From Candidatus Binatia bacterium (lineage in GTDB: Bacteria > Desulfobacterota > Binatia > UBA9968), in assembly GCA_046757725.1 (NCBI GenBank), contig JBHHYU010000008.1:230-64229 (forward strand): 64,000 nucleotides of DNA. Direction: 5' to 3'. Positions 3,388 to 22,024 of the stretch are shown piece after piece. The notes beneath the pieces were generated by a model. That model was given only the letters and a program-made list of their open reading frames with translations, did not search any database and was not told the origin of the DNA. Numbering within the stretch: the stretch's first letter is position 1; every line of letters starts with the position of its first letter. The translations under genes and the position numbers were made by a program.

Positions 3388-4716
3388 ATGTCTCAGCTCA
3401 CATACAGCCAGGTCGATCAGGACATCCTTCGGGTCATGAGGAAACCCGGGTGGCGCTACTACACATTGCTATTTCTCGACCTCATCGTTTTAGGATGGGG
3501 TGCTTATGCCTGGCGATATCAGATAGTGCACGGCATGGGGGTCTCAGGACTTACCCACCCGGTGATGTGGGCGATCTACATTACCAACTTCGTCTTCTGG
3601 GTGGGCATAGCCCATTCGGGGACTTTGATATCAGCTATTCTCTACCTATTTCGCGTTCGGTGGCGAGCCGGCGTTTACCGGACTGCCGAAGCTGTTACAA
3701 TCTTTGCCCTTTTCACAGCCGGCCTCTTTCCGATCATTCACCTCGGTCGTCCCTGGTTCTTTTACTGGCTTCTCCCCTATTCTCAGGTGGGCGGCCTTTG
3801 GATCAACTTTCGCTCCCCTTTGGTCTGGGACGTCTTTGCAGTGATGACCTACATGATTATCAGTATCCTCTTTTTCTTTACCGGTCTGGTCCCGGACATG
3901 GCCATCGCTCGGAACAAGACTACGGGATGGCGGCATCGGCTTTACACCTTTATGGCCCAGGGTTGGCAAGGAACCGACCGGCAGTGGCGTCACTACAAGG
4001 CCGCTTACCTCTTTCTGGCAGCCCTGGCTACTCCACTGGTCATCTCGGTCCACAGCGTAGTCTCCTGGGATTTTGCCCAGACCATTGTCGCAGGTTGGCA
4101 CAGTACTATCTTTGCCCCCTATTTTGTTGCAGGCGCAATCCATTCAGGCCTAGCCATGGTGATCACCCTGCTTATTCCGGTCCGGAGAATCTTCCGCCTC
4201 GATGCCTATATCACTCAGAGACACCTGGAGAATCTGGCAAAGCTGATCATCCTCACCGGTCTCATCGTCGGATACGCCTACGTGGTGGAGACCTATATTA
4301 CCTGGTACAGCAATAACATCCCGGAATGGCAACGCTTCGTTTTCAACGTGACGGGAGCATACGCCATTCCGTTCTGGATCATGATTCTTTTTAACTCTCT
4401 CGTTCCTCTCCTCTTCTTCGTCCAGCGCATCCGCACCAGCACCCCCTGGCTCTTCGGGATTGCGATCCTGATCAATATCGGAATGTGGATGGAACGGTTC
4501 GTGATCATCGTTGGTTCATTGGCCCATGGGTACGATCCCCATTCCTGGGGGCTTTACTTTCCAACCTGGGTGGATATCAGCATCACCCTCGGCAGCTTCG
4601 CCTGGTTCTTTTTCTGGTTTCTCTTGTTCACAAAGTTTCTCCCCGTGGTTTCTATGGTGGAGGTGAAGGAAGAGTTGCCGCCTCCTATAAAGAAGATGGA
4701 AGGAAAGGAGGAATAA
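3388..4716 (+). CDS. actC: NrfD/PsrC-like polytopic membrane quinone-binding subunit (ActC-like)
   Basis: 442 aa, highly hydrophobic with many TM segments. The start codon directly abuts the actB stop (TAGATG), and a GGAGGA ribosome-binding site lies upstream. Confidence 0.7.
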   Translation: MSQLTYSQVDQDILRVMRKPGWRYYTLLFLDLIVLGWGAYAWRYQIVHGMGVSGLTHPVMWAIYITNFVFWVGIAHSGTLISAILYLFRVRWRAGVYRTAEAVTIFALFTAGLFPIIHLGRPWFFYWLLPYSQVGGLWINFRSPLVWDVFAVMTYMIISILFFFTGLVPDMAIARNKTTGWRHRLYTFMAQGWQGTDRQWRHYKAAYLFLAALATPLVISVHSVVSWDFAQTIVAGWHSTIFAPYFVAGAIHSGLAMVITLLIPVRRIFRLDAYITQRHLENLAKLIILTGLIVGYAYVVETYITWYSNNIPEWQRFVFNVTGAYAIPFWIMILFNSLVPLLFFVQRIRTSTPWLFGIAILINIGMWMERFVIIVGSLAHGYDPHSWGLYFPTWVDISITLGSFAWFFFWFLLFTKFLPVVSMVEVKEELPPPIKKMEGKEE

Positions 4717-4717
4717 A

Positions 4718-5233
4718 ATGGCTGCCTTATCGGACGGCCTTGTCGGGAGTTTTGCCCATCTTGATAGCCTGCTTACGGCCATCGAAGGATTGCGTCAAGC
4801 CGGTTATCACGAGATACAAGCCCTCTCTCCCGTCCCTCACCATGCCATCGACAAGGCACTGGAGAAACCGACTAGTCCGGTGCGTGTCTTTACGCTGATC
4901 GGTTGTCTTCTTGGCGCCATCACCGGCTTTGTGCTGACCATAGCCACTTCACTCCATTACCCGCTCATCACCGGCGGCAAACCGATTGTCTCGATCCCTC
5001 CCTTCCTCATCATCGTCTTCGAACTCACGATTCTGTTCGGCGGGCTCCTGACTCTCGGGGGCATGCTTTTGAATGCTCGTCTACCACAGGTACAGATCGT
5101 TCCAGCCTATAATCCTCGCTTCTCAGAGGATCGGTTCGGTTTGTGGGTCCGCTGCGAGACCAACAATTATAACGCCGTAACCGAACTGCTCCGAAACGCA
5201 GGTGCGGAGGAGATACGCCATGCCAAGGATTAG
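4718..5233 (+). CDS. actD: ActD-like small membrane subunit of ACIII (DUF3341-like)
   Basis: 171 aa with two central TM helices. There is a perfect AAGGAGG ribosome-binding site 8 nt upstream, and the position after actC matches the ACIII gene order. Confidence 0.6.
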   Translation: MAALSDGLVGSFAHLDSLLTAIEGLRQAGYHEIQALSPVPHHAIDKALEKPTSPVRVFTLIGCLLGAITGFVLTIATSLHYPLITGGKPIVSIPPFLIIVFELTILFGGLLTLGGMLLNARLPQVQIVPAYNPRFSEDRFGLWVRCETNNYNAVTELLRNAGAEEIRHAKD

Positions 5234-5269
5234 CTACATCGTCAAGAACGACGCCAAGGGAAGGCGCTG

Positions 5270-6550
5270 ATGCAAGAGGGCTTCGAAAAATGTTGGAACA
5301 TAAGGCCTAGGGTCTCCGAGGGATTGACCTGGGGATTGACCGGGTTATTGGGCGTTGGCTTGGTAGCGTTTGGCGCCAGCCTCCAACTTGACCCGATACG
5401 GGCCTGGCAGATCTATCTGGTCAACTTCCTTTTCTGGGCGGGACTGGCCCAAGGCGGAGTGGTTTTCGCTGCAGTTTACCATGTGGTTGGAGCAAAATGG
5501 GGAGCTTCCATAAGGCGCATGGCCGAGGGGTTCGCCGTCTTTCTCCCAGTGAGCCTCATCATGTTCTTGCCGCTCTTCTTCGGTCTCAGATTATTTTTCG
5601 ACCGGGTCCTTGAGCTGAACCCGGACCGTGGTGCATGGTTTGATCCCAGGTTTATATTTATCAGGGGTGTTCTGGGATTAGGATCGATGACGGTCTTAAG
5701 CCTATTTTTCGTTTACTACTCACTCCGGCCCGAGGTGGGGTTGGCCCTTAAACAAAACCTCATGCCTCGCCGCTGGTTCTACGACTGGTTGGCAGAGGAA
5801 TGGGGGGGCGGCGAGCTGATCGAGATTCAGCGAAGTCGCCGGGGAATGAGTGTGCTCGCGGCAGGTGTACTTTTGGCATACCCGATGATCTACAGCTTCA
5901 TGGCCTTCGATCTGATCATGGCGCTGGATCCGTTCTGGTACAGCTCCCTCTTTGGAGGCTACTTTTTTATCAGCACCTTCTATCTCGGCCTCGCCGGCCT
6001 AGCTGTGGTGGCAGTGCTGATCCGGCGGAACCTCGGCATTTCGGTGGTCACTGACGCCCACCTCTCGGATCTGGGCAAGCTCCTCCTGGGATTCGACCTG
6101 ACCTATGTCTCCATGCTCTGGTCACAATACATCGTCATATGGTACGGGAATCTTCCTGAAGAAACCCACTTCATCGTGCTTCGTCTGTGGGAAAGGCCCT
6201 GGGCGTTTCTTTCTTGGGGTGTACTGATTCTCAGTTCTTTGATCCCTTTCCTGGTGTTTCTGAGCAAGCGGGCCAAACAGATACCTTGGATTTTGCTGAC
6301 GGTCAGCCTATTGATCGCAACAGGGTTATGGCTCGAGCGATATGTCCTGATAGCGCCGTCCATAGGGCAACACGGGTCGCTCTCCTTTAGCCTGTTGGAG
6401 ATCGGAGTAACTTTAGGCTTCTTGGGAGCAGCCGGGTTAAGCTACCTTTTCTTTTTAAAGCACTTTCCCGTGCTTCCGCTTATCCAATTGCCGGTTTCGG
6501 CTGTTCCAGGTGAAACAGATGTTGTTGAAGAAGTCTCACCCAATGTTTAG
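5270..6550 (+). CDS. actF: Second NrfD-like membrane subunit (ActF-like)
   Basis: 426 aa polytopic membrane protein with NrfD-like composition. A GGGAAGG ribosome-binding site lies upstream. Confidence 0.6.
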   Translation: MQEGFEKCWNIRPRVSEGLTWGLTGLLGVGLVAFGASLQLDPIRAWQIYLVNFLFWAGLAQGGVVFAAVYHVVGAKWGASIRRMAEGFAVFLPVSLIMFLPLFFGLRLFFDRVLELNPDRGAWFDPRFIFIRGVLGLGSMTVLSLFFVYYSLRPEVGLALKQNLMPRRWFYDWLAEEWGGGELIEIQRSRRGMSVLAAGVLLAYPMIYSFMAFDLIMALDPFWYSSLFGGYFFISTFYLGLAGLAVVAVLIRRNLGISVVTDAHLSDLGKLLLGFDLTYVSMLWSQYIVIWYGNLPEETHFIVLRLWERPWAFLSWGVLILSSLIPFLVFLSKRAKQIPWILLTVSLLIATGLWLERYVLIAPSIGQHGSLSFSLLEIGVTLGFLGAAGLSYLFFLKHFPVLPLIQLPVSAVPGETDVVEEVSPNV

Positions 6551-7130
6551 AAATTTGCCGTTAAGGCTGCCTACCATGGTAGGGAAAACGATAAGGCAGC
6601 TGCAAAGCTGTTCTCGGCGTCGGAAGCGATTTGCTCTCAGAAGGGCCGGATTGTGCTTGGCTACCTTAGCGGGCCTGTTGTGGCTCGGTGTCAGTATGGC
6701 CTACGGATGGCCCTGGAGCACTGACATGGAGAAACAGCCTTCAGTCAAGCCACAGGAGGCACCCCTAGCGCCACCGCCCAACTCGATTCCAAGGAAAGGC
6801 AGAGAGCCGCGCATGAATCGGATTGAGGCGGGAAAGCGGTTGCGCAATCCCATAGACCCAACGGCCATGTCAGTTGAACACGGCAAGAAGCTTTTTCAGG
6901 TCTACTGCGCCCTTTGTCACGGACCCGATGCGAAGGGCGGGGGCCCTGTGGCCAAAAAATTTGTCCCACCTCCCGACCTGACTTTGGAAATATTCCGCAA
7001 GCGAACCGACGGCTTTATCTACGCAACCATTCGAGACGGAGGACCCCTCATGCCCAGCCAAGCGGAGGCCGTTTCTCCAAAAGAAAGATGGGACATCGTC
7101 AACTACCTCCGCACCTTGCAGGAGAAGTAA
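6510..7130 (+). CDS. actE: Monohaem membrane-anchored cytochrome c (ActE-like)
   Basis: Single CALCHG motif and an N-terminal TM anchor preceded by an Arg-rich stretch. The true start is probably an internal ATG (6543 or 6576), because the 6510 start overlaps actF by 40 bp. Confidence 0.55.
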   Translation: MKQMLLKKSHPMFRNLPLRLPTMVGKTIRQLQSCSRRRKRFALRRAGLCLATLAGLLWLGVSMAYGWPWSTDMEKQPSVKPQEAPLAPPPNSIPRKGREPRMNRIEAGKRLRNPIDPTAMSVEHGKKLFQVYCALCHGPDAKGGGPVAKKFVPPPDLTLEIFRKRTDGFIYATIRDGGPLMPSQAEAVSPKERWDIVNYLRTLQEK

Positions 7131-7425
7131 CGTACGTGAGTGCCTTAGAGAGCTTCTCCCTCCCGTTGCAAATCGAATAGTCTTTCGCAAATTTGGGAAA
7201 AGAGAGATTTTTAATTCTCAACCTCCGGAAGCATCACCCTAATCATCACCAGTTTATCCCAAGTTTTAACGTTCAGGTCAGTGGTATGTTTCTTGCGAAC
7301 CCCTCTTTCTAACTACCCGAGCAAAGGACCTCGCGGCATGGTGACCGAAACGTGTTTGGCGGCTAAATTGGATCGTACCGACAGGCACCGGTATCAGAGT
7401 GCAAACCAATGGTGGAGGCTTCTTC

Positions 7426-8154
7426 ATGCGAACAGTAAGATGGTTATTTATGCTCCTCTCGCTCTTTTTTTGGGGGTGGACGTTTTTCCCGAGCGCTGAG
7501 GCTATTGCCTTTGAACGGGACTCCCGATGGAACAGCTCTTACTCAAAGGGGCGCTCACTGTATCTTATTCAGTGCGCAGCCTGCCATGGCAAAAACGGTG
7601 AGGGCGGCGTCAGTCTCCCTCTTAACTTGCAAAGCTTTCTTGCCGTAGCCCCTCCGGGCTACATCCGTCGTTCGATTTTCTACGGGCGACTACCGCGGCC
7701 AATGGCCGCCTTCGGGACTATTCTCAAAAAGGAAGAGATCGAGTCCATCGCCGCCTATGTACGTTCCTGGCAGCTCCAGGATTACAAGGGCATTGACATG
7801 AATCGTGTGGCCGGTTCCGTATCCAACGGCAAGTTTCTCTTTGATGGAATCTGTTCCGGGTGTCACGGGAGGGACGGTGTCGGCGGCCCCCAAGTGGGTG
7901 GCGGTCACGTCACCAGCTCCATTGCCGGATATACCGGGCCCTCACTTAATAACCAGGGCTTTCTGAAGTCGGCCACGGACGGATATATCAAAGCGACCCT
8001 GATGTATGGCCGCGTTGGTACCCCCATGGGTTCCTACCTGAAGGGCAAGCAAGGTTTTGTCGAGCTGAGCGAGGAAGAGATCAGCGACATCGTGGCATAC
8101 ATTCGCTCCTGGGAAAAGCGAGACGCCGGGCCACGAGATCCCTGGAGAGAATGA
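7426..8154 (+). CDS. Dihaem class-I c-type cytochrome (periplasmic, Sec signal)
   Basis: Two CxxCH motifs (CAACHG, CSGCHG) and an N-terminal signal peptide (MRTVRWLFMLLSLFFWGWTFFPSAEA). A GGTGGAGG ribosome-binding site precedes the ATG at 7426. Confidence 0.7.
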   Translation: MRTVRWLFMLLSLFFWGWTFFPSAEAIAFERDSRWNSSYSKGRSLYLIQCAACHGKNGEGGVSLPLNLQSFLAVAPPGYIRRSIFYGRLPRPMAAFGTILKKEEIESIAAYVRSWQLQDYKGIDMNRVAGSVSNGKFLFDGICSGCHGRDGVGGPQVGGGHVTSSIAGYTGPSLNNQGFLKSATDGYIKATLMYGRVGTPMGSYLKGKQGFVELSEEEISDIVAYIRSWEKRDAGPRDPWRE

Positions 8155-10840: not shown

Positions 10841-11437
10841 GTGAGATTGAAATGGAACCGGCGGCGTTTCCTGCGAGCTGCCGGAGGCGCACTGGGAACG
10901 GCAATACTCTGGGTTCTAGCGGGTGCGCGGGTATCCGCGCGGAGTGGGTCGAACTTCGCCAACCTGCTACGTCCTCCGGGGGCGTTGCCCGAACCTGAGT
11001 TTCTCCAGCGCTGCATCCGCTGCACCCGGTGCGCGGGCGTGTGTCCGAACACCGCCATTCGGATGGCCGGTTTCAGCTCTGGGCTCCACAATCTCAATAC
11101 CCCTTACATCATGCCCCGGGTGCAGGCCTGTATGCTCTGCATGAAATGCACCGAAGTCTGCCCGACGGGCGCGCTGCATCAAATCCCGGCGGATAACAAA
11201 CAGATCACTACCCGTGTCAAGATGGGGCGCGCCTATGTGGATAAGTCCATGTGTTATTCCTATCAAAAACGCACCTGCGGGGTCTGTATTCGCGCCTGTC
11301 CGTTCCCCGGTCTCGCCATGAAGACGGGGCTATACGAGCAGCCCATCGTGACCGACTCCTGTGTCGGATGCGGCCTGTGCGAGCGTGCCTGCATCCACAT
11401 TCCGCAGGCGATTCGAATCGTTCGGGAGGAGGCCTGA
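10841..11437 (+). CDS. NapG-like periplasmic ferredoxin (4x 4Fe-4S, Tat signal)
   Basis: GTG start with a GGAGGA ribosome-binding site. The RRRFLRAAGGALG motif is a Tat signal. Four CxxCxxCxxxCP-type cluster motifs are present. Confidence 0.65.
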   Translation: MRLKWNRRRFLRAAGGALGTAILWVLAGARVSARSGSNFANLLRPPGALPEPEFLQRCIRCTRCAGVCPNTAIRMAGFSSGLHNLNTPYIMPRVQACMLCMKCTEVCPTGALHQIPADNKQITTRVKMGRAYVDKSMCYSYQKRTCGVCIRACPFPGLAMKTGLYEQPIVTDSCVGCGLCERACIHIPQAIRIVREEA

Positions 11438-11441
11438 AGTC

Positions 11442-12968
11442 ATGACTCGATGGCCCCGCCGCATGGTGCAAATCTCGGCACTCGCCTTCCTTATCGCGGT
11501 GCCTGCGCTGAACTACGGCGGTGTCCTCTACCAACAGTACGGAAAAAACGGTTACCACAAGATTGCCCTCATGGGGACACTTTTCGAACGCGGGTTATAC
11601 AATCTCTTCTCAGCGATGGCGCGGGTGCTACCCAATCCGGCGGGAAACTCAACGAGTCTTGTGGGGGGATACGGCTCTTTTTCGATATTCGGTATCTCTT
11701 TCCTCGATCCTGTGATTGCCCTCGAGACGGTGCTTCGCGTGCAGGCAGTCTGGACCGCTATCCTCGTAGGGGCTGCGCTGCCACTGCTGCTGGCCGTGCT
11801 GTTGGGGCGGATCTTCTGCGGATGGCTTTGTCCCGTGAACACGGTGCTCGAAGGTTTCGACCTGCTTCGAAAGCGCGCCCTGCCGCGCATTGGCTTCCGG
11901 CCGCTGGACGTGGCAGTGCCGCGCTGGTTGAAGTGGGTTCTCTTGTTCGCCGGTGTGACCGTAGCCGTCCTGGCGGATCTCACCATCTGGACGCACTTAC
12001 TCCCCCATGTCCAGATCGGCCGGGACGTTTTTTCTCTTATCGTGTTCGGTACGACCACGGTGGGCGCTCCTCTCCTCCTAGGAATCATCCTGGCAGAGAT
12101 TCTCTTTTCCCGCAGGGTATGGTGCCGGTCGCTTTGCCCCACCGGGGCGCTACTCGGCCTGGCGGCCCTGGTAGCTCCACTACGAGTGCGTCGGGCGAAG
12201 GAACCGTGCCTTAAAGGCTGTGCGGCCTGTGCCCAGGCCTGCCCCATGGCACTGAATCCCGCAAAGCCGTTCCCGGTAGCTGAATGCTACAACTGCGGGC
12301 TCTGTGTCGCCACTTGCCCGGCTCAGTTGCTCACTCTCGGCTTCCCGCGGCCGCGCTGGGTCGTTGTTCAAGAGATATTTCCCATGTTTAAGCGCATGAC
12401 GCTTTTTGTCCTCACTGCTACCCTGCTTCTCTCCTCACCGGCGGCGGCCCACCACATGCGCGGCCAGCCACACTACGGGTATGCCGAGAACTATCCACAG
12501 GTCCCTACGAAGGAAACCCGCGCGCACATCGGCAACTTTGATATCACGATCGTCAGTTATTTCTTCGAAGGCCTGCGGCGTGACCTCTCGGACACCCCAC
12601 ACGACGTCCAGTTCTATGTAGGTCTTAGTGACAGCCGGACCCATCAGAGCTACATGGGCCCGCTTTCCATTGAGTTGTGGCGTGGGGGGCAGCGCATCGC
12701 CACCTTCAACCACACGCACCCCTTCGAAGAAGCAGTCTATCGCATTCGTCAGGCAGTTCCCGGACCGGGGACATATGAGATTCGCCTCGCAGGGGGTGGG
12801 ATCAGCGGAGTCGTCACCGTGGATGTGGAGGGAGAATCAGCTCAGTTGACGCCTTTCATCCTGACGGGGGCTGCCGCCCTGCTCGGCCTTCTTATTTTCT
12901 TAAACCGCCGACGGAGGCAGAGAAGGAGAGTCTATGTGGCATCTAATGCGCAAAACCATGTCCAATAG
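11442..12968 (+). CDS. NapH/MauN/CcoG-like polytopic membrane ferredoxin with an in-frame ~200-aa C-terminal extension (His-rich periplasmic domain plus terminal TM anchor)
   Basis: TM helices, a GWLCP motif and two C-terminal 4Fe-4S motifs (CLKGCAACAQACP, CYNCGLCVATCP). The frame then continues without a stop through a hydrophobic segment (MFKRMTLFVLTATLLLSSPAAAHHMRGQPHYGY...), a ~150-aa soluble domain and a final TM helix followed by an RRRRQRRR stretch. The ATG at 11442 has a GGGAGGAGG ribosome-binding site. Confidence 0.55.
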   Translation: MTRWPRRMVQISALAFLIAVPALNYGGVLYQQYGKNGYHKIALMGTLFERGLYNLFSAMARVLPNPAGNSTSLVGGYGSFSIFGISFLDPVIALETVLRVQAVWTAILVGAALPLLLAVLLGRIFCGWLCPVNTVLEGFDLLRKRALPRIGFRPLDVAVPRWLKWVLLFAGVTVAVLADLTIWTHLLPHVQIGRDVFSLIVFGTTTVGAPLLLGIILAEILFSRRVWCRSLCPTGALLGLAALVAPLRVRRAKEPCLKGCAACAQACPMALNPAKPFPVAECYNCGLCVATCPAQLLTLGFPRPRWVVVQEIFPMFKRMTLFVLTATLLLSSPAAAHHMRGQPHYGYAENYPQVPTKETRAHIGNFDITIVSYFFEGLRRDLSDTPHDVQFYVGLSDSRTHQSYMGPLSIELWRGGQRIATFNHTHPFEEAVYRIRQAVPGPGTYEIRLAGGGISGVVTVDVEGESAQLTPFILTGAAALLGLLIFLNRRRRQRRRVYVASNAQNHVQ

Positions 12969-13018: not shown

Positions 13019-13615
13019 ATGACCGAGAAGCCTATCGACCGTAAGACCTTTCTACGTAAGGCCCCGTTGGCAATCGCGCGTGCCTTTGCCCAGGCCGTGC
13101 GCGAGGCGCATCCAACCATCCCAAAATCTTCTCTGCCTCTCCTTCGGCCGCCCGGGGGGGCCGCCAAAGAGACTTTCCTCGACTTGTGCTGCGGGACCGG
13201 TGCGTGCGCAGATGTCTGCCCGGCCAAAGCCATCCAGCTCCGCCCGCGTGAGGATACACCTTCGCTTCGCGCCCCGGTTATCATCCCCAACGAGGCTGCC
13301 TGCGTTGTCTGCGACGAACTCGCTTGCATGTCCGCTTGCCCCAGCGGCGCACTTGTGCCGGTCCCCCGAGAGAAGATCCGCATCGGCTTTGCCCGTGTCA
13401 ACACCGAGACATGCGTGGCATGGACGGGGACGGACCCGGGGTGCAACTATTGCGTTGCCCGTTGTCCACTCGGAACACCGGCCATCTCGATAGATAAGAA
13501 AGCAGACGGAAAAGGGCCGGTCGTTAAGGACGCCTGCATCGGCTGCGGTGTGTGCGAATACTACTGCCCGACCCAACCGCCCGCAATCCGCGTGCTTGCG
13601 AGGGAGCAGGGTTGA
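13019..13615 (+). CDS. Second NapG/NapF-like poly-ferredoxin (4x 4Fe-4S)
   Basis: Four Cys-cluster motifs. The N-terminus (DRKTFLRKAPLAIARAFAQAV) resembles a Tat signal but carries RK instead of RR. A ribosome-binding site lies upstream. Confidence 0.55.
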   Translation: MTEKPIDRKTFLRKAPLAIARAFAQAVREAHPTIPKSSLPLLRPPGGAAKETFLDLCCGTGACADVCPAKAIQLRPREDTPSLRAPVIIPNEAACVVCDELACMSACPSGALVPVPREKIRIGFARVNTETCVAWTGTDPGCNYCVARCPLGTPAISIDKKADGKGPVVKDACIGCGVCEYYCPTQPPAIRVLAREQG

Positions 13616-13755: not shown

Positions 13756-14229
13756 ATGAGTGAAATGAAGTTAGGGCGGGAAAGTTCATACGGAATCGAA
13801 GGCCTGTTGACTCTGGCTGCAAGGCCGCGGGGCACTGCGATGCTCTTAAGCGACATTGCCGCCGATAGAGGGATCCCCCAGAGTTTTCTCGCTAAAATCT
13901 TTCAGAAACTCACCAGATACGGAATCGTCCATTCTTTCCGTGGGGTCGTCCGCGGTTACGCCCTCGCTCGGCACCCAAAAGAGATCAAGGTTAAAGAGAT
14001 CCTATTGGCGATCGAAGGGCCTGATCTTTTCGAGCGTTGTATCTTCTGGAGCGATCGCTGTGCCGATCGCAACCCCTGTCCTCTGCATGACCAGTGGAAG
14101 CAATTAAAACATCAGTTCATCGGAGGATTGATGGAACGGACAACCCTGGCCGACCTGATAAAAAAAAGACCAGCCAGGCCTACGACGGCCAAGCGTCACT
14201 TTGTTCAGGACGCAAGGCGGGGAAGTTAA
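13756..14229 (+). CDS. Rrf2-family transcriptional regulator (NsrR/IscR-like, putative Fe-S cluster ligands)
   Basis: The N-terminal wHTH is typical of Rrf2. The motif CIFWSDRCADRNPCP gives C-x6-C-x5-C spacing as in NsrR/IscR. The gene sits between the Nap-like and NXR-like modules. Confidence 0.7.
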   Translation: MSEMKLGRESSYGIEGLLTLAARPRGTAMLLSDIAADRGIPQSFLAKIFQKLTRYGIVHSFRGVVRGYALARHPKEIKVKEILLAIEGPDLFERCIFWSDRCADRNPCPLHDQWKQLKHQFIGGLMERTTLADLIKKRPARPTTAKRHFVQDARRGS

Positions 14230-14395: not shown

Positions 14396-15976
14396 ATGAG
14401 ACGGTGTTTTTTGTTGATTGCCGGTGTGTTCCTCCTGTTACGTGCAGCAGGAGTCGGGACCTCCGCCGAATTAAAATCTCCTCCCCCTTCACCTAAACTC
14501 CTTGCCCTCGGAAAGCAGACTTACAACAAACATTGTGTCGCGTGCCATGGAGTGAATGGACGAGGAAATGGAGAAGCGGCCTACCTTCTCTATCCCAAAC
14601 CCCGTAATTTTGTGGCCGCAAGGTACCGCCTAGTGTCGACCTGGGAACGCATCCCGACCGACCAGGATCTCTTCAACACGATTTCGCGCGGCATGCCGGG
14701 ATCAGCCATGCCCTCGTGGGGGCATCTCTCGTCAAAGCAGCGCTGGGGGCTTGTTCATTACGTAAAGTCATTTGCTGAAAGGCCACTAACCACCAAGCCT
14801 CAGAGGAGACCAGGGGCTGATGGCAGCGATGGTCAAGGGGTCATCTATGTTGGGCCGGAGCCCTCTTACGATGCCACTGCCAAGGCGCGTGCTAAAGAGC
14901 TTTTCCGAGAGGCGTGTGCCTCCTGTCACGGTGCAACGGCAAAAGGGGATGGCGTGAAAAAGCAGTGGGACGTGGAAGGCTTTCCCACGCGCCCACGTGA
15001 TCTCACAGCCGGCGTTTTCAAGGGAAGTCCGGACCCCTTGCAACTGTACCGCCGCATCATCGCAGGCATTCCGGGTAGCCCCATGCCGATGAACAGCTGG
15101 GCTTATGGTAATGACGCCTGGCACCTCGTTCACTTTATCCGCTCCCTCTCAAGTGATGAGCAACGAGAGCGCGTGGAGATGAAAAAATTTCAGATCGTGG
15201 CCACGCGCGTAAAGAAGGTACCGGACAATCCCGACTCCGGCACTTGGCGTCTCGCCCAACCGGTAAACCTTCATCTGATGCCGCTCTGGTGGCGCTCCCA
15301 GCGGCCGGAAGAATTGACCGTGCGGGCACTCTACGACAGGAAGGAATTGGCTTTACTTTTAGTCTGGGCCGATCAGACGCATGACCATACAGCGATCCGG
15401 CCACAGGATTTCCGGGATGCTGCAGCGGTAGAGTTCTCGCTTACCAGGGATCCTCCTTTTTTCGCCATGGGCGAGAAGGGGAAATCCGTCAATATCTGGA
15501 TGTGGAAATCGGAGCGGCAGGCAGACCTTGAACCTGCCTTTCAGGACCTTGACAAGATCTACCCTAACCTCGGCATCGACTCTTACCCTAATCTATTACG
15601 CTCGCCGGTGGAACAGCCTTCGCGTAACGCGCTCACGCTCAAGTCAGACAAGACCTTCGTGACCGGATGGGGGGCGGGGAATATTGTTTCTGACCCCCAG
15701 CGCAAGAGCCCAGCCGAGGATCTCACGGCGCAGGGATTCGGCACGCTGCGAGCACGACCGCGGATCGACCAGAAGGTCAATGCGAAGGGCATTTATGGTG
15801 TCGGTGCCTACCGGGTCATCTTCCGGCGGGCGTTAAAGCCCAGCGGTAAGCACGCGCCGAAGTTTCAACCCGGCACGGCTGTGCCGGTGGCCTTTGCGGT
15901 CTGGAACGGCAGCGCCGGAGACCGTGACGGAAAAAAATCTGTGACCATCTGGCAGGAGCTGAAGATCGCAAAATGA
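14396..15976 (+). CDS. NxrC-like gamma subunit: Sec-signal, N-terminal dihaem cytochrome c fused to a C-terminal EB_dh-like (type-II DMSO-reductase haem-b subunit) domain
   Basis: Strong GGGAGGAGG ribosome-binding site and a signal peptide. Two cbb3/c552-type haem motifs (CVACHG, CASCHG) are followed by ...WNHLVHFIRSL. The C-terminal ~260 aa ends in VAFAVWNGSAGDRDGKKSVTIWQEL, which recalls from memory the gamma subunits of EbdC/SerC/NxrC enzymes. The gene lies immediately upstream of the alpha subunit. Confidence 0.55.
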   Translation: MRRCFLLIAGVFLLLRAAGVGTSAELKSPPPSPKLLALGKQTYNKHCVACHGVNGRGNGEAAYLLYPKPRNFVAARYRLVSTWERIPTDQDLFNTISRGMPGSAMPSWGHLSSKQRWGLVHYVKSFAERPLTTKPQRRPGADGSDGQGVIYVGPEPSYDATAKARAKELFREACASCHGATAKGDGVKKQWDVEGFPTRPRDLTAGVFKGSPDPLQLYRRIIAGIPGSPMPMNSWAYGNDAWHLVHFIRSLSSDEQRERVEMKKFQIVATRVKKVPDNPDSGTWRLAQPVNLHLMPLWWRSQRPEELTVRALYDRKELALLLVWADQTHDHTAIRPQDFRDAAAVEFSLTRDPPFFAMGEKGKSVNIWMWKSERQADLEPAFQDLDKIYPNLGIDSYPNLLRSPVEQPSRNALTLKSDKTFVTGWGAGNIVSDPQRKSPAEDLTAQGFGTLRARPRIDQKVNAKGIYGVGAYRVIFRRALKPSGKHAPKFQPGTAVPVAFAVWNGSAGDRDGKKSVTIWQELKIAK

Positions 15977-16058
15977 AGAGCGCAGCAGAAATAGAATTCA
16001 CAAAGCGGAATGGGGCAGGGGGTCTTGATGCTGACCAGTGGATTCCAGAAGGAGAGTG

Positions 16059-19000
16059 ATGACCATGAACGATGAAAAACTACAAGATCGGAATCGCTTG
16101 ACGCGCCGGGATTTCCTGCGCTGGATGGGTATCGGGAGCGGCACAGCAGTACTCAGCACAGGGTTGCCGTTGAGGCTTCTGGCTGCTGCGCGCCCCGGCG
16201 AGAATCCCCTCGCTGGTTCGGTGGACCGTAACTGGGAAAAAATATATCGCAATCAGTACAAGTATGATCGTGTTTTCGACTGGGTCTGCTCCCCCAATGA
16301 CACTCATGCCTGTCGAGTACGGGCCTATGTCCGAAATGAGATCGTGACGAGACTCGGATCAACCTACGACTACCAGACTTACGCCGACCTTTACGGTAAC
16401 AAAGCCACCCCGAACTGGAACCCACGGCAGTGCGCCAAGGGCTATACTTTCCATCGGGTGATCTACGGACCCTACCGGCTCAGGCATCCCATCGTCCGCA
16501 AAGGCTGGAAGGCCTGGGCCGACGCCGGCTTCCCTGAGCTGAGACCGGAAAACAAAGCGAAGTACATGTTCGACAACCGCGGCCAGGACGAGTTTGTTCA
16601 GATCTCCTGGGAGGATGCGCTTCAAAGCATCGCCAAGGCCATCGTCGCCATTTCGACACGTTACAGCGGTGAGGGGGGAAAGAGGCGGTTGCTGGCCCAG
16701 GGCTACCAGCCGGAAATGGTTGAGGCTGCCGCGGGTGCCGGCACTCGTTGCGTCAAGATGCGTGGAGGCATGGGCCTTCTAGGGGTCATCGGCAAATACG
16801 GGTTGTACCGGCTCAACAATTCGCTTGCGCTCCTCGATGCGAAGATTCGAGGGGTAGGTCCAGAAAAAGCACTAGCTGGCCGCAACTGGTCTAATTATAC
16901 CTGGCACGGAGATCAGGCGCCCGGCCACCCATGGGTGCACGGACTGCAAACATCGGACTGCGATTTCAACGACTTGCGCTTCACCAAGCTCATTATCTTG
17001 GACGGAAAGAATCTCGTAGAAAATAAGCTACCCGATGCCCACTGGTTCATCGAGTGCATGGAGCGTGGGGGAAAAATTGTCGTTATCGCCCCGGAATACG
17101 GACCTCCTGCAACCAAGGCTGATTACTGGATTCCCATTAGGCCCGAGACCGACACGGCACTCTGGCTTGGTGTTACTAAACTGATTTTCGAAAACAAGTG
17201 GTACGATGAGACATTCGTCAAACGCCATACCGATTTCCCCCTCCTCGTCCGTACCGATACGTTGAGGCGTCTGCGGGCACATGAGATCTTCCCGAACTAT
17301 TCCTCCAACCTCTCCCCTGATGGGCCTTCGATGAAGATCCAAGGTCTTACACGGGAGCAACACTCCAAACTCGGTGATTTTGTAATCTGGGACCAGAAAA
17401 ACAATGGCCCAGCCGCGCTCACGCGAGATGATGTGGGAGAGACGATGGCTAAAAAGAGGCTGGACCCAACCCTGGAAGGAACGTTCAAGGTCAAGCTTGT
17501 CGACGGTAAAGAGGTGGAGGTCGCCACGCTTTGGACGCTCTATCGGACCCATCTTCGGGACTATGACCTTGACACGGTATCAGAGATCACGCATGCACCC
17601 AAGAACCTGATCGAACAGCTTGCCAAGGACATCGGAGCGATAAAACCAGTTGCGATCCACCAGGGCGAGGGGATCAATCACTGGTTCCACGGTACCGAGA
17701 TGAACCGTGCAGCCTACCTGCCACTGATGCTAACCGGCAACATTGGCAGGCCGGGAGCCGGGGGCCATACATGGGCAGGAAATTACAAAGCAGGTCTTTT
17801 TCAGGGTTCCCCATGGACCGGGCCGGGCTTTAAGGGGTGGGTAGCCGAGGACCCATTCCACCCGAATTTGGACCCCAAGGCCCATGGAAAAAACGTAAAG
17901 ATCCATGGCTACACTAAGGGCGAGGAGCCAGCCTACTGGAACCATGGGGACCGGGCATTGATTCTCAACACACCGAAGTTCGGCCGTAAGAATTTTACCG
18001 GCGAGACCCACATGCCAACACCGACCAAAGCCATTATCTTTAACAACGTTAACCTGATCAATAATGCCAAGTGGGCCTACGGGATGATTAAGAACGTCAA
18101 CCCCAACATCGAGATGATCGTCTCGCTGGATATTCAGATGACTGCCTCTATTGAGTATGCAGACATTGCGCTGCCAGCGAATAGCTGGATGGAGTTTGAA
18201 GGGTTGGAGATGACGGCGAGCTGCTCAAATCCCTTCTTGCAGATCTGGAAGGGAGGTATTTCACCGGTGTTTGATAGCAGGGATGACCTGACGATTCTGG
18301 CTGGCATCGCCGGCGAGCTTGCCGAGATTACGGGAGAGAGCCGCTTTCGGGATCATTTTAAGTTCGCTGCGCCCGAACAGCGCGGGATCTATATCCAGCG
18401 CCTGCTCGACACCTGCACGACCACGGCAGGGTATAAACTCAAGGACATTATGGCCGGCAAGTATGGACCCCCGGGGGGCAGCCTGTTGAACTTCCGCACC
18501 TACCCTCGCATCCCCTTCTATGAGCAGATCCATGATTCAGAGCCGTTCCACACGGACACGGGGAGACTCCACGCCTATGCTGATATCCCTGAGGCAATCG
18601 AGTACGGGGAAAACTTCATCGTGCATCGGGAGGGACCAGAGGCTACGCCCTACTTGCCCAACGTCATTGTCAGTTCAAACCCTCACATTCGCCCGGAGGA
18701 TTACGGGATCCCTCTAACCGCGGAACACTGGGATGAACGCACCGTCCGCAACGTCAAGCTTCCATGGAGCAGAGTCAAAGAGACGAAAAATTTCCTGTGG
18801 GAGAAAGGCTTCCATTTCTACTGCCTCACTCCGAAGACACGCCACCGGGTCCACAGTGGTTGGTCAAACGTCGATTGGCACATGCTCTATGACTCAAACT
18901 TCGGCGACCCTTACCGTCTTGATAAGCGTGCGCCAACGGTGGGAGAGCACCAGCTCCATATCAATCCTCAGGCAGCACGGAAATTAGGGATCAACGATGG

Positions 19001-19538
19001 CGATTACGTTTACGTGGATGCCAACCCGGCCGACCGCCCCTACCTCGGCGCAACGCCCAGCGATCCTTTCTACAAGGTATCGCGCTGCATGCTGCGAGTG
19101 AAATACAACCATGCTTATCCCTATAACATCGTCATGATGAAGCACGCCCCGTTCATCGCCACAGAAAAGAGCGTCAAGGCACACGAAACACGCCCCGACG
19201 GCCGCGCCCTATCGGAAAATACCGGCTACCAGGCCAATCTCCGCTACGGCTCCCAGCAATCCGTCACCCGTAATTGGCACATGCCAATGCACCAAACGGA
19301 CAACCTTTTTCACAAGTCAAAGGTCTTTATGGGGTTTATCTTTGGCGGTGAAGCCGACAACCACGCGATCAACACCGTACCGAAGGAAACCCTGGTGCGC
19401 GTCACGAAGGCTGAGGACGGAGGCCTTGGCGCCAAAGGCATCTGGAAACCGGCCACCACCGGCTACACGCCGGACAACGAGAACGACTTCATGAAACGAT
19501 ATCTGGCAGGGGAGCTGGTCAAGGTGCCGGGCAAATAG
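16059..19538 (+). CDS. nxrA: Tat-exported NarG-type molybdopterin oxidoreductase alpha subunit, periplasmic NXR/NarG-like (NxrA candidate, ~1160 aa)
   Basis: Twin-arginine motif TRRDFLRWMGIGSG. The N-terminal Cys/His FS0-type motif is VCSPNDTHACRV. The size matches periplasmic NxrA (~1150 aa) rather than type-II enzymes (~920-980 aa) or cytoplasmic NarG (~1250 aa). A gamma-like subunit lies upstream and a beta subunit downstream. The alternative ATG at 16065 has better ribosome-binding-site spacing. Confidence 0.7.
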   Translation: MTMNDEKLQDRNRLTRRDFLRWMGIGSGTAVLSTGLPLRLLAAARPGENPLAGSVDRNWEKIYRNQYKYDRVFDWVCSPNDTHACRVRAYVRNEIVTRLGSTYDYQTYADLYGNKATPNWNPRQCAKGYTFHRVIYGPYRLRHPIVRKGWKAWADAGFPELRPENKAKYMFDNRGQDEFVQISWEDALQSIAKAIVAISTRYSGEGGKRRLLAQGYQPEMVEAAAGAGTRCVKMRGGMGLLGVIGKYGLYRLNNSLALLDAKIRGVGPEKALAGRNWSNYTWHGDQAPGHPWVHGLQTSDCDFNDLRFTKLIILDGKNLVENKLPDAHWFIECMERGGKIVVIAPEYGPPATKADYWIPIRPETDTALWLGVTKLIFENKWYDETFVKRHTDFPLLVRTDTLRRLRAHEIFPNYSSNLSPDGPSMKIQGLTREQHSKLGDFVIWDQKNNGPAALTRDDVGETMAKKRLDPTLEGTFKVKLVDGKEVEVATLWTLYRTHLRDYDLDTVSEITHAPKNLIEQLAKDIGAIKPVAIHQGEGINHWFHGTEMNRAAYLPLMLTGNIGRPGAGGHTWAGNYKAGLFQGSPWTGPGFKGWVAEDPFHPNLDPKAHGKNVKIHGYTKGEEPAYWNHGDRALILNTPKFGRKNFTGETHMPTPTKAIIFNNVNLINNAKWAYGMIKNVNPNIEMIVSLDIQMTASIEYADIALPANSWMEFEGLEMTASCSNPFLQIWKGGISPVFDSRDDLTILAGIAGELAEITGESRFRDHFKFAAPEQRGIYIQRLLDTCTTTAGYKLKDIMAGKYGPPGGSLLNFRTYPRIPFYEQIHDSEPFHTDTGRLHAYADIPEAIEYGENFIVHREGPEATPYLPNVIVSSNPHIRPEDYGIPLTAEHWDERTVRNVKLPWSRVKETKNFLWEKGFHFYCLTPKTRHRVHSGWSNVDWHMLYDSNFGDPYRLDKRAPTVGEHQLHINPQAARKLGINDGDYVYVDANPADRPYLGATPSDPFYKVSRCMLRVKYNHAYPYNIVMMKHAPFIATEKSVKAHETRPDGRALSENTGYQANLRYGSQQSVTRNWHMPMHQTDNLFHKSKVFMGFIFGGEADNHAINTVPKETLVRVTKAEDGGLGAKGIWKPATTGYTPDNENDFMKRYLAGELVKVPGK

Positions 19539-19572
19539 AGGGAGCTTGCAAGATAGACCGAGGAGAACTCAG

Positions 19573-19869
19573 ATGCCTTATGACGATCCTGATCCCACGG
19601 ATCCCAATATCTTGGTGGGGGTAGCCCTGCCGGCCGATGCGGAAGTAATATGCGAGATGGCCTACGTCTTTGCCGAAGAATTTATCCGAATGGGGTACGA
19701 TCGAGAGCGAGTGCTGCAGGTTTTCAAGAACCCGTTTTACACCGGTCCGCACAATGCTTACCGGGACCTGGGCGAAGAGAAAGTCCAGTCCATTATCGAG
19801 GAGTGTATCCACGCATGGGGCGGTGTCTGTTTTGTTGATTGCGACGACGGAAAGGAGACAGAACCATGA
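19573..19869 (+). CDS. Small acidic Cys-containing protein of unknown function, translationally coupled to nxrB
   Basis: 98 aa with a GAGGAG ribosome-binding site upstream. Its stop overlaps the nxrB start (ATGA). Cys residues include a C-terminal CFVDCDD. It occupies the entire nxrA-nxrB intergenic space. Confidence 0.5.
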   Translation: MPYDDPDPTDPNILVGVALPADAEVICEMAYVFAEEFIRMGYDRERVLQVFKNPFYTGPHNAYRDLGEEKVQSIIEECIHAWGGVCFVDCDDGKETEP

Positions 19870-21131
19870 GTCAGGTTTACAACTGGCAACTCGGCCGCAA
19901 GATGGATTATCCCTTTCCGGCCGCATATCCGAAGCGGCAGTTCGCCTTTGTCTTTAATATCAACCGCTGCATCGCCTGCCAGACCTGTACCATGGCCTGC
20001 AAATCAACCTGGACCTTCAGCAAGGGCCAGGAACATATGTGGTGGGCCAACGTCGAGACCAAACCTTATGGTGGTTATCCCCAGTTTTGGGACATGAAGA
20101 TCCTGCGGCTTCTCGAGGAAGCCAACCCCGGAGGGCAGCAATGGTCGGGAACCCCTTCCGGGAACTCCAAAAACCCCTACGGTCGTTTTGACGGACAAAC
20201 TATTTTTGAGGCTAAGAAAGCGCTTCAGCCCGGGAGCTCACGGGTCCTAGGTTACCTTCCCACCGACGAGGAGTGGAACTTTCCCAACATCTATGAGGAC
20301 AATCCGCTCGGCAAGAAAGGGGTGCCCAACCAATTCGACACAACCGGAGTGGAGCTGCCCGTACACAAGACCTGGTTCTTTTATCTGGCGCGTATTTGCA
20401 ACCACTGTACCTACCCCGGGTGTCTGGCAGCCTGCCCGCGCAAGGCCATTTACAAACGCCCTGAGGACGGCATCGTCCTCATCGACCAGAAGGAGTGCCG
20501 TGGCTACCGTAAGTGCGTGGAGGCCTGCCCTTACAAAAAGGCAATGTATCGGGGCAATACCCGAGTGACCGAGAAATGCATTGCCTGCTACCCACGAGTC
20601 GAGGGTAAAGACCCCGAGAGTGGTGGCCAGCCTATGGAAACGCGTTGCATGGCGGCGTGCGTGGGCCAGATGCGCATGCAGGGCCTAGTCAAAATGAACC
20701 GGGACGGCACCTGGACCGAAGACCGACACAATCCGATCTACTACCTCGTGCATGTGGCCAAAGTAGCCCTACCGCTTTATCCCGAACTCGGCACTTTACC
20801 CAATGGTTACTATATTCCTCCCCGCTGGGTACCGCGACCTTATCTTCGGCAGATGTTCGGTCCAGGCGTTGACAACGCGATCGAGCGTTATATTAACCCG
20901 GACCGAGAACTCCTTGCGGTCCTGCAGCTTTACCGGCGCTCCAACCGAATCATCTTCCGCTATGAAATTAAGAAGGGGCCAAAGATCTATGAGGCCACGC
21001 ACCGCGGCCGGAAAGTGACGCTGTACAACGACACCATTATCGCTTATGGCCGAAACAACAAGGAGATCTTCCGAACCACTGTTGAGGAGCCGGTTTATGT
21101 ACGGTCGAAAAAACATGCCAACTCGATATGA
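19866..21131 (+). CDS. nxrB: NarH/NxrB-type Fe-S beta subunit (4 clusters, NxrB-like insertion), 421 aa
   Basis: The N-terminus MSQVYNWQLGRKMDYPF...FAFVFNINRCIACQTCTMACKSTW resembles periplasmic NxrB. Four Cys clusters are present, including the inserted CIACYPRVEGKDPESGGQPMETRCMAAC. A GGAAAGGAGA ribosome-binding site lies upstream. Confidence 0.75.
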   Translation: MSQVYNWQLGRKMDYPFPAAYPKRQFAFVFNINRCIACQTCTMACKSTWTFSKGQEHMWWANVETKPYGGYPQFWDMKILRLLEEANPGGQQWSGTPSGNSKNPYGRFDGQTIFEAKKALQPGSSRVLGYLPTDEEWNFPNIYEDNPLGKKGVPNQFDTTGVELPVHKTWFFYLARICNHCTYPGCLAACPRKAIYKRPEDGIVLIDQKECRGYRKCVEACPYKKAMYRGNTRVTEKCIACYPRVEGKDPESGGQPMETRCMAACVGQMRMQGLVKMNRDGTWTEDRHNPIYYLVHVAKVALPLYPELGTLPNGYYIPPRWVPRPYLRQMFGPGVDNAIERYINPDRELLAVLQLYRRSNRIIFRYEIKKGPKIYEATHRGRKVTLYNDTIIAYGRNNKEIFRTTVEEPVYVRSKKHANSI

Positions 21132-21217
21132 AGAGATAAAGAGCCCGTATTCCGTTCGTTTTCATTTCCTCCTGCGCAACGTCCGGCGCCTTCAGGTCAC
21201 CCACAGTTCAGGAGATC

Positions 21218-22024
21218 GTGATGAAACCTGAAAATCTGAGAAAAGAACAAGAGGTCAGGGAGGGCGATCTAGCCCTCTGCCGAGCCACTCTGTATAGCGC
21301 GCTGGCGCTCGGCTTCCGACCGCCCACAGAGGAAACATTAACTCGCCTCGCCTCTACGGAGGGTGCAACGGTTTTGGCCGGCGCAGCGGCGCTGCTGGAC
21401 GGACAGCACCAGGTAACCCTCACCTCCGCCGCAGAGGATCTCAGCAAAATAAAAAAAACCTCCGTATCAGAGCTCGAAGTCTCATTCTGGCGCCTATTCG
21501 GCCATACCGTACGCGGCCAGGTACCCCTATATGAAACCGAGTACGGTGTTGATTCTCTTTTCCAGCAACCGCAGGAATTGGCAGACCTATTAGGTTTTTA
21601 CCACGCATTCGGTCTCGCCTTAGACCCGAAAGAACACGAACGGGCAGATCATGTTAGTTGCGAACTCGAGTTTCTCTCCTTTCTTGCCCTCAAAGAGGTC
21701 TACGGCTTGGAGCAACGGGACGACCCTATGCTGGAAGAGACACGTAAGGCCGCGCGCACCTTCTTACGGGATCATCTCGGTCGGTTCGCGCCTGCCTTCA
21801 CCAGGAAGCTTTCTCGTGAAGACCGGGAGGGCTTTTACGGGGCTCTAGGTGAGCTCTGCGCGAGGTTTGTGATCGAAGATTGTACCCGACTCAGCGTGTC
21901 GGTCGGCCCAGAGAGTTTAGGCTTGCGTCCAGCTGCTGAAGATCAAGTGCCGATGGCATGTGACAATGGAGCGGAGTGCACTGAGTTGTCCGGCGCTTGC
22001 GAACAGGAAATAATGGAAAAATGA
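21218..22024 (+). CDS. TorD/NarJ/DmsD-family redox enzyme maturation chaperone (delta subunit)
   Basis: Contains the family motif E-H-E-R-A-D-H-V-S-C-E-L-E-F-L-S-F-L (DHxxxELEFLxxL), typical of TorD/NarJ. The gene lies downstream of the beta subunit. Confidence 0.7.
   Translation: MMKPENLRKEQEVREGDLALCRATLYSALALGFRPPTEETLTRLASTEGATVLAGAAALLDGQHQVTLTSAAEDLSKIKKTSVSELEVSFWRLFGHTVRGQVPLYETEYGVDSLFQQPQELADLLGFYHAFGLALDPKEHERADHVSCELEFLSFLALKEVYGLEQRDDPMLEETRKAARTFLRDHLGRFAPAFTRKLSREDREGFYGALGELCARFVIEDCTRLSVSVGPESLGLRPAAEDQVPMACDNGAECTELSGACEQEIMEK

Follow-up and report, generated by a model that had tools for sequence, protein, structure and literature searches.

The DNA analysed here, referred to as the window, is a stretch of 64,000 nucleotides from a Candidatus Binatia bacterium (contig JBHHYU010000008.1), and its feature of interest is a single open reading frame (ORF) in which a NapH-like membrane ferredoxin runs on into a further domain, here called X, to give a protein that we call NapH-X. 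The ORF listing and the raw sequence agree on a start ATG at 11442 and a stop codon at 12966-12968, and a strong Shine-Dalgarno sequence was read ahead of this ATG, which lies just past the stop of the upstream NapG-like gene. NapH-type membrane ferredoxins (NapH, NosR, PceC, CcoG and MauN) are widespread, and the fusion described here, which is real and conserved, extends a known theme in which a NapH-like module is combined with a periplasmic accessory domain. An earlier note on this DNA had proposed a NapH-like core followed, in a frame that continues without a stop, by an additional periplasmic domain and an additional terminal anchor; hydropathy and hidden Markov model scans found every one of these elements, and the uninterrupted frame was borne out by the same single ORF in 22 of 23 related loci (Table 1).

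The first 305 residues form the NapH/MauN-like core. A Kyte-Doolittle scan placed four transmembrane (TM) helices at residues 11-29 (TM1), 103-121 (TM2), 166-184 (TM3) and 199-217 (TM4), AlphaFold2 predicted helices at all four positions, and lysine and arginine cluster where cytoplasmic segments are predicted, with enrichment at the N-terminus, loop 122-158 and the stretch past TM4; the predicted topology of the core has both termini in the cytoplasm. The C-terminal ferredoxin domain is cytoplasmic in the established topology of NapH, and the placement adopted here agrees with the domain description given elsewhere (PMC5928378). Pfam Fer4_5 matches the core twice (E=7e-15), and in a BLASTP alignment with E. 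coli K-12 NapH (27% identity over residues 56-299, E=5e-19) the two CX3CP motifs line up, as do the two 4Fe-4S motifs. Among related sequences C126, C130 and P131 are invariant or almost so, and both [4Fe-4S] motifs are conserved in the family alignment. The NCBIfam NapH model NF007013 (E=7e-32) gave 110.6 bits against a curated cut-off of 234 and TIGR02163 (napH_) gave 107.5 bits against 213.05, and because both scores lie under their cut-offs we call the protein NapH-like rather than a curated NapH equivalog. NapH-X thus shares with MauN and with the NapH of E. coli and Wolinella succinogenes the four-TM module, the two CX3CP motifs and the two C-terminal cytoplasmic [4Fe-4S] motifs, as well as an adjoining NapG-like ferredoxin exported by twin-arginine translocation (Tat) and a NapA-like molybdenum enzyme. 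However, E. coli NapH terminates about 10 residues past its last cluster motif, which is where NapH-X carries on for another 200 amino acids, and the E. coli nap operon, unlike the cluster in the window, has no X-like gene.

X (residues 315-508) consists of a hydrophobic segment (residues ~315-333), a beta-sandwich of about 130 residues, a C-terminal TM helix and a basic tail. By Kyte-Doolittle hydropathy the first of these hydrophobic segments is the weaker, whereas the second (residues 469-487, followed by NRRRRQRRR) is strong; the domain between them (331-468) is net acidic and begins AAA/HHMRGQPHYGY. In the family, the closing TM helix is followed by at least two lysine or arginine residues in 166 of 205 sequences scanned. 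The first segment had been described as a new TM segment, but it has instead the anatomy of a signal peptide, with an n-region containing lysine and arginine (MFKR), an h-region of about 12 residues and a polar c-region (SSPAAA) with small residues at -3 and -1, so that an A-x-A stands directly before an invariant His-His pair. We regard it as an internalised signal peptide because stand-alone homologues of X have a corresponding true N-terminal signal peptide, and, since the ferredoxin domain of NapH is cytoplasmic, the segment at residues 315-336 runs outward through the membrane, from its cytoplasmic to its periplasmic side, in the manner of a signal peptide. As judged from the sequence, signal peptidase I would be expected to cut at AAA/HH.

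The residues on both sides of this site are under unusual constraint, as judged from 180 family members that carry the motif. At -1 there are 145 alanines, 16 glycines, 15 serines and 4 prolines, and at -3 there are 89 alanines, 27 valines, 25 leucines and 23 serines, with a few others. Histidine occupies +1 in 179 of the 180 and +2 in all of them. Past the site the consensus reads HH-x-(K/R)-G-x-P-H-Y-x-Y-x-E-N-Y-P-Q-x-P, where G5, P7 and Y11 (180/180) do not vary, H8 is present in 179, and N14, Y15, P16, Q17, P19 and E22 are each found in at least 175. Measured from the last lysine or arginine, the site lies at a median distance of 18 residues in genuine N-terminal signal peptides (n=118) and of 19.5 in internal ones (n=66); in the window the figure is 18. 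In the numbering of NapH-X, the candidate ligands H338, H344, Y345, Y347 and E349 are invariant or almost so across the family. The description of the domain start as His-rich needs narrowing, as H337, H338 and H344 are the only conserved histidines. The X family is probably metal-binding.

Table 1. Features of the NapH-X gene and of the conserved cluster around it (window positions)
Feature	Position	Strand	Basis
Complete NapH-X fusion ORF, 508 codons + stop	11442..12968	+	Same single ORF in 22/23 related genomes
Shine-Dalgarno GGGAGGAGG, 9 nt upstream of ATG 11442	11424..11432	+	Read from sequence
NapH/MauN-like core, residues 1-305: four TM helices, then cytoplasmic ferredoxin domain	11442..12356	+	Fer4_5, NapH model, hydropathy, K/R distribution, E. 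coli NapH identity
First CX3CP motif CGWLCP, residues 126-131, cytoplasmic side past TM2	11817..11834	+	Sequence, E. coli NapH alignment
Second CX3CP motif CRSLCP, residues 228-233, past TM4	12123..12140	+	Sequence, alignments
First [4Fe-4S] motif C256-x3-C260-x2-C263-x3-C267-P, residues 256-268	12207..12245	+	Sequence, alignments
Second [4Fe-4S] motif C282-x2-C285-x2-C288-x3-C292-P, residues 282-293	12285..12320	+	Sequence, Pfam, alignments
Internal signal-peptide-like segment MFKR-MTLFVLTATLLL-SSPAAA, residues 315-336	12384..12449	+	Aligns with N-terminal signal peptides of stand-alone homologues
Hallmark motif HHMRGQPHYGYAENYPQVPTKE, residues 337-358, candidate N-terminal metal site	12450..12515	+	Conservation in 180 members
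Predicted periplasmic 8-strand beta-sandwich, residues ~356-462	12507..12827	+	AlphaFold2, core predicted local distance difference test score (pLDDT) 85-91
C-terminal TM anchor LTPFILTGAAALLGLLIFL, residues 469-487	12846..12902	+	Hydropathy 2.25; terminal helix in AlphaFold2 model
Cytoplasmic Arg-rich tail NRRRRQRRRVYVASNAQNHVQ	12903..12965	+	Sequence and hydropathy
Dihaem class-I cytochrome c, first gene of the conserved cluster	7399..8154	+	Pfam; syntenic in all 23 of 25 loci with sufficient contig reach
Tat-exported NapA-like molybdopterin enzyme, 880 amino acids	8177..10819	+	Pfam, NCBIfam, structure match
NapG-like 4x[4Fe-4S] ferredoxin, twin-arginine signal NRRRFLR	10841..11437	+	ORF, Pfam, NCBIfam
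Second NapG/NapF-like ferredoxin, degenerate Tat-like motif DRKTFLRK	13019..13615	+	Follows X in nearly all related loci

Relatives were scanned with one genome per GTDB species, which gave 23 loci, mostly in metagenome-assembled genomes (MAGs) of Nitrospinota, the others being labelled Methylomirabilales, Acidobacteria, Nitrospirae or Deltaproteobacteria. One stop-to-stop ORF of about 460-570 codons (mostly about 530) spans the NapH core and X in all but one of them, the exception (L020) having a frameshift within the NapH core. The earlier note had asked whether orthologues carry a stop near 12370, and none of the close orthologues does; the junction at 12360-12400 is open in the window as in 22 of the 23 genomes, and because of this the fusion can be put down neither to chance nor to a sequencing artefact. 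A missed stop or an assembly artefact at the junction was rejected for the same reason. The identity of the X domain ranges from 81% down to 29% across the related loci, therefore the fusion is old and under selection. Where the contig extends far enough, tblastn with the window proteins recovered the same gene order, namely dihaem cytochrome c, NapA-like molybdenum enzyme, NapG-like ferredoxin, NapH-X and second NapG-like ferredoxin. With the C-terminal 194 residues as query only seven database proteins were retrieved (54-77% identity), and in five of them the CxxCxxCxxxCP motif of NapH is continuous with the C-terminal domain. Truncated database entries named "ferredoxin" or "hypothetical protein" that start with MALNPA or MGVNPA exist because of frameshifts in the NapH core and not at the junction, as seen in the two contigs fetched.

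Several loci depart from this pattern in their details. Frameshifts inside the NapH core split the fusion at L001 (5748-7272), L002 (525-2110) and L020 (9064-10573), two of them in low-coverage long-read contigs. One Nitrospinota MAG (L023:1474-2862) has a NapH-X ORF that ends past the beta-sandwich at 462 amino acids and lacks the C-terminal TM anchor, which reflects a genuine truncation or else a fault in the assembly. Extra plain NapH-like and NapG-like genes lie between NapH-X and the final NapG-like gene in four loci (L004:10527-12175, L006:9153-10843, L012:10344-12088 and L024:9685-11275).

X is not confined to the fusion. A HMMER search of 1.84 billion representatives returned 75 X clusters at 50% identity, of which 39 reached E<=1e-10. 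They include some NapH-X fusions, about 500 amino acids long, together with many stand-alone proteins of 180-230 amino acids, built from an N-terminal signal peptide, the His-His motif, the beta-sandwich, a TM helix and a basic tail. A profile search added 157 members at E<=1e-3, whose names in public sources are nearly all "hypothetical protein". Besides its spread through Nitrospinota, X is present in MAGs labelled Verrucomicrobiales, Reichenbachiella (Bacteroidota) and other groups. Six stand-alone contexts were examined, from one Verrucomicrobiales MAG, one Reichenbachiella MAG and four unclassified metagenome contigs, and all six have a cluster of cytochrome c, a molybdenum enzyme of 870-912 amino acids, NapG, NapH (298-348 amino acids), X and a second NapG-like protein (NapG'), with the start of X placed 4-14 nt before the napH stop, so that the two genes overlap. 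In five of the six, a NapH-like protein of 516-599 amino acids, which we call "Big", is encoded between X and NapG'. Further natural fusions follow the gene order, with NapH-X-NapG' (P0013), NapH-X-Big (P0017 and P0035) and X-Big (P0024, P0042 and P0056) all represented, and all 31 contexts examined are clusters of cytochrome c, NapA-like and NapG genes. Because the X gene adjoins napH or is fused with it in every one of these contexts, X can be regarded as a dedicated partner of NapH-type proteins, and the fusions NapH-X, NapH-X-NapG' and NapH-X-Big provide Rosetta-stone evidence for one complex. It had also been considered that the C-terminal part might match an unrelated, separately encoded family; it is indeed separately encoded in other phyla, but with a gene that in every context examined adjoins napH or is fused to it, it is not unrelated.

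The "Big" genes themselves lie right past the stand-alone X gene (L027:7609-9330, L028:7575-9374, L029:6093-7643, L030:8597-10243 and L031:8604-10343). The periplasmic N-terminus of the L027 protein is rich in histidine and methionine (13 of each in the first 110 residues), and those of L028, L030 and L031 carry CxYCGM(I/V)(N/D)CTM, a YHS/TRASH-like motif.

Curated databases offered little on X itself. Pfam and NCBIfam hmmscan gave no match for the X domain of the window (E<=0.1) or for 10 stand-alone relatives (E<=1), apart from sub-threshold hits of YtkA (PF13115) in two distant stand-alone members (P0055, E=0.007, 17.5 against 25.9 bits; P0060, E=0.15), and PF13115 had no match in the window domain. 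Homology of X to FixG_C, cupredoxin, CopC, FMN_bind, DUF4198 or another curated family accordingly found no hmmscan support in these two collections. No sequence relative of X turned up in the PDB with either the family profile or the motif peptide. Foldseek against the PDB returned generic immunoglobulin (Ig) or fibronectin type III (FN3) matches only, none of them significant, with the H. pylori copper protein CrdA as the first or second match (E=5e-3 to 1.4e-2). The beta-sandwich is poorly conserved across the family. The literature on Nitrospinota, Nap, CcoG and NosR yielded no description of the cluster, the fusion or the X family, and X appears to be an uncharacterised and seemingly undescribed protein family.

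On these grounds we favour, with moderate confidence, the reading that NapH-X is a two-part precursor from which signal peptidase I would free a tail-anchored periplasmic X, with an N-terminal His-His metal site, that works with the NapGH-type module. The first part (residues 1-305) would be a NapH-type membrane ferredoxin with two [4Fe-4S] clusters facing the cytoplasm, and the second (residues 315-508) would be X, which other phyla encode in a separate, translationally coupled downstream gene. In the lineage of the window the napH stop codon was lost, which would have turned the Sec-type signal peptide of X into a fifth membrane-spanning segment, and a cut at AAA/HH would leave NapH with an extra C-terminal helix while releasing X as a periplasmic protein that begins with His-His. 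Such a cut is suggested because X keeps its own anchor and the invariant histidines lie flush at +1 and +2. The freed alpha-amino group, together with H337/H338, H344 and the surrounding tyrosine, glutamate, asparagine and glutamine residues, could then form an N-terminal-histidine (histidine-brace-like) metal site, for which copper would be the leading candidate and nickel a possible one. Circumstantial indications of a metal are the CrdA match, weak as it is, and the "Big" neighbours in sister clusters with their His/Met-rich or CxYCGM..C sequences.

Freed X would be located on the periplasmic face of the NapGH-type module, which in turn would serve the NapA-like molybdoenzyme and the dihaem cytochrome c, and it would act as a metal-dependent redox or metal-handling accessory subunit. 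This role is proposed because NapH-like modules are on record as partners of several kinds of extracytosolic redox domain (PMC8238504). Our best guess is that X has a metal or electron role in the periplasm; its cleavage, its metal binding, the identity of the metal and its part in electron transfer are what we infer.

Two groups of proteins give precedents for parts of this reading. In N-terminal-His metalloproteins (CopC, YcnI, LPMOs (lytic polysaccharide monooxygenases), Ang-1/Ang-2 and DUF4198) an invariant His1 comes directly behind the signal peptide, on an Ig-like beta-sandwich, and X is alike, with the signal peptide and the invariant His1 both found at the level of sequence. Such a His1 is what defines histidine-brace-type metal sites (CopC, YcnI and LPMOs). 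X also resembles YcnI in its predicted membrane anchor, a C-terminal TM helix. A signal peptide followed by an invariant His1 has been reported to predict metalloproteins, Ig-like folds included, and was used to find new Ig-like copper and nickel proteins (PMC12537917). Unlike these proteins, to which it has no sequence or significant fold match, X has a motif made of His-His and a 20-residue invariant peptide, and it is tied to a respiratory Fe-S/molybdenum module, whereas they are tied to copper uptake or polysaccharide oxidation. The second precedent, and the nearest for cleavage of a respiratory polyprotein at an internal signal peptide, is FbcH. The FbcH cytochrome b-c1 polyprotein of Bradyrhizobium joins a polytopic respiratory protein to a C-terminally anchored periplasmic redox protein, and its internal signal peptide is cut once the protein has been inserted in the membrane; the proteins concerned are different, and in NapH-X the cleavage is a predicted one.

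Several observations weigh against a processed, metal-binding X. The motif and its linker (residues 330-354) have a pLDDT below 50 in the AlphaFold2 models of both the isolated domain and the full-length protein, with no preformed metal site, and because of this low score the full-length model holds no docking information on the His-His motif relative to NapH. The fold matches of X are non-significant (E of at least 5e-3) and of the generic Ig/FN3 type, and we know of no copper need in Nap-type nitrate reductases. Leucine at -3, seen in 25 of the 180 members, is less typical for signal peptidase I, and the "Big" gene is not present in the cluster of the window. The NapA-like enzyme scores far under the NapA cut-offs. 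The invariant aromatic/His peptide might just as well serve for docking or belong to a quinol or proton site, and both the cleavage and the metal binding of X are predicted from sequence.

An alternative, which we consider unlikely, is that X is a structural subunit that binds no metal. Here the hydrophobic segment would stay uncleaved as a fifth TM helix, and HH..PHY.Y.ENYPQ would lie at the interface of membrane and periplasm, either as part of a quinol/proton site of NapH or as the surface on which NapG, the cytochrome c or the molybdenum enzyme docks. The strict linkage to napH and the repeated fusion do argue for a physical complex, a motif rich in tyrosine, histidine, asparagine and glutamine is typical of quinone/proton sites, and both the poor conservation of the beta-sandwich, as for a scaffold, and the lack of metal-site geometry in AlphaFold2 are consistent with this alternative. 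However, an h-region of about 12 residues followed by SSP and AAA makes a poor stable TM helix and is typical of a cleavable signal peptide, and the stand-alone members carry the segment at their true N-terminus. The zero-residue spacing between A-x-A and His-His in 180 members is hard to explain unless a free N-terminus matters, and X would have no need of its own C-terminal anchor if the segment remained attached.

The architecture of NapH-X also recalls CcoG/FixG/RdxA, as the earlier note had remarked, with a NapH-like polyferredoxin core, a further TM segment, a C-terminal periplasmic Ig-like beta-sandwich and a possible link to copper in both. An improbable explanation would be a CcoG-like cupric reductase or copper delivery system, in which electrons from the Fe-S clusters of NapH reduce Cu(II) held by X or by the CX3CP motifs, Cu(I) is passed to periplasmic or membrane cuproenzymes, and the link to the molybdenum enzyme is secondary. 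Besides the parallel with CcoG in the NapH-like core with two [4Fe-4S] motifs and the C-terminal Ig-like domain (PMC7558416), the N-terminal His-His of X, the His/Met-rich or YHS/TRASH-like N-termini of "Big" proteins in other phyla and CrdA as top fold match are in its favour. The likeness stands for the architecture but not for homology, since TIGR02745 (CcoG) gave 15.6 bits against a cut-off of 316.7, with only residues 104-134 aligned, and FixG_C (PF11614) had no match in the X domain of the window (E<=0.1) or in 10 stand-alone relatives (E<=1). X further differs from CcoG in its signal-peptidase-type site, invariant His-His motif and own C-terminal anchor. CcoG is found in the context of ccoGHIS and cbb3-oxidase genes and NapH-X in that of a molybdenum enzyme; a ccoNOQP/ccoGHIS context occurred in none of the 31 contexts examined, all of which are NapA-like/NapG clusters, and the cluster has no cuproenzyme or cco genes. 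Moreover, the copper sites of CcoG lie in its core, and its Ig domain has no known role (PMC7558416).

NosR, NirI and PceC (RdhC) share with NapH-X the design of a NapH-type membrane module plus a periplasmic accessory domain, fused or in a neighbouring gene (PMC8238504, PMC5928378). Their accessory domain is N-terminal and binds flavin mononucleotide (FMN), whereas X is C-terminal, belongs to an unannotated family and has neither an FMN_bind signature nor a flavinylation motif. Pfam found no FMN_bind match in NapH-X, and the NosR model NF046105 gave 26.4 bits against 1000; because it is without an FMN_bind domain, NapH-X is not of the NosR/PceC type.

It is hardly credible, and by now largely refuted, that two proteins arise without proteolysis, through translation of X from the ATG at 12384 or an artefact that hides a stop near 12370, given that, for all the in-frame ATG (Met315, MFKRM) ahead of the hydrophobic segment, the separate napH and X genes of other phyla and the several database entries that begin inside the protein (such as the 238-264-residue "MALNPA..." calls), 22 of 23 independent genomes keep the frame open, at X-domain identities of 29-81%, the internal methionine is absent from most orthologues and has in the window sequence no comparable Shine-Dalgarno site ahead of it, and the short entries come from frameshifts in the NapH core rather than at the junction. 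Independent initiation at M315 was rejected as a general mechanism, the methionine being neither conserved nor preceded by a Shine-Dalgarno sequence.

To return to the processed, metal-binding X, we raise one extension of it only tentatively, as we doubt that it will hold in full. X may found a class of its own among periplasmic redox or metal centres, made entirely from its first ~22 mature residues (NH2-His-His...His-Tyr..Tyr.Glu-Asn-Tyr-Pro-Gln), and serve as the long-missing periplasmic point at which electrons enter or leave NapH-type membrane ferredoxins. The centre could possibly be a copper (or nickel) histidine-brace site or a Tyr/His-derived protein cofactor site, and the Nitrospinota lineage would produce it within a NapH-X polyprotein that signal peptidase then cuts.

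The locus exposes a strictly NapH-linked and seemingly undescribed partner with an unusually invariant His-His motif after its signal peptide. If X does bind copper or another redox metal, Nap-like respiratory modules would gain a new cofactor, and respiratory chains would come under the rule by which His1 behind a signal peptide identifies a metalloprotein. If it is cleaved, NapH-X would offer a case, rare in bacteria, of a respiratory polyprotein that is cut at an internal signal peptide.

The genes around NapH-X resemble Nap components without being assigned to them, the NapG-like and NapA-like partners both scoring under the equivalog cut-offs. The closest solved structure to the molybdenum enzyme is D. 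desulfuricans NapA (E=4e-78), whose Cys140 (the Cys ligand), neighbouring Met141 and Arg354 have equivalents in it, and its identity to E. coli NapA is 27%. Met308 of D. desulfuricans NapA is replaced by isoleucine. The cluster has no NapD-like chaperone and no NapB or NapC, and a class-I dihaem cytochrome c is present instead of the latter two. In the second NapG-like ferredoxin (13019-13615) the Tat-like motif has RK where RR is usual; like NapF, this protein may remain cytoplasmic and bind there to the Fe-S domain of NapH.

Immediately upstream of the cytochrome c/NapA-like cluster, at 466-7130 on the same (+) strand, lies a gene set for alternative complex III (ACIII), with a 973-residue ActB-like molybdenum/Fe-S fusion carrying a Tat signal, two NrfD-type membrane subunits, ActD and a cytochrome c. 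Such an arrangement points to a route from quinol through ACIII and cytochrome c to or from the molybdenum enzyme, parallel to NapGH. On the downstream side, a cluster resembling nitrite oxidoreductase (NXR) at 16038-22024 (+) encodes a 1166-residue molybdopterin alpha subunit, a 430-residue four-cluster beta subunit and a NarJ-like chaperone. The Nap-like cluster is thereby placed next to ACIII and NXR genes, in a genome that resembles that of a nitrite oxidiser. Directly upstream of the NxrA-like gene, 14396-15976 (+) encodes a 526-residue fusion of two class-I cytochrome c domains with an EB_dh/NxrC-type haem-b domain (TIGR03477, E=1e-35). For the gamma subunit of a periplasmic NXR-type enzyme this would be an uncommon build. 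Between the Nap-like and NXR-like clusters there is a gene for an Rrf2-family regulator (13756-14229).

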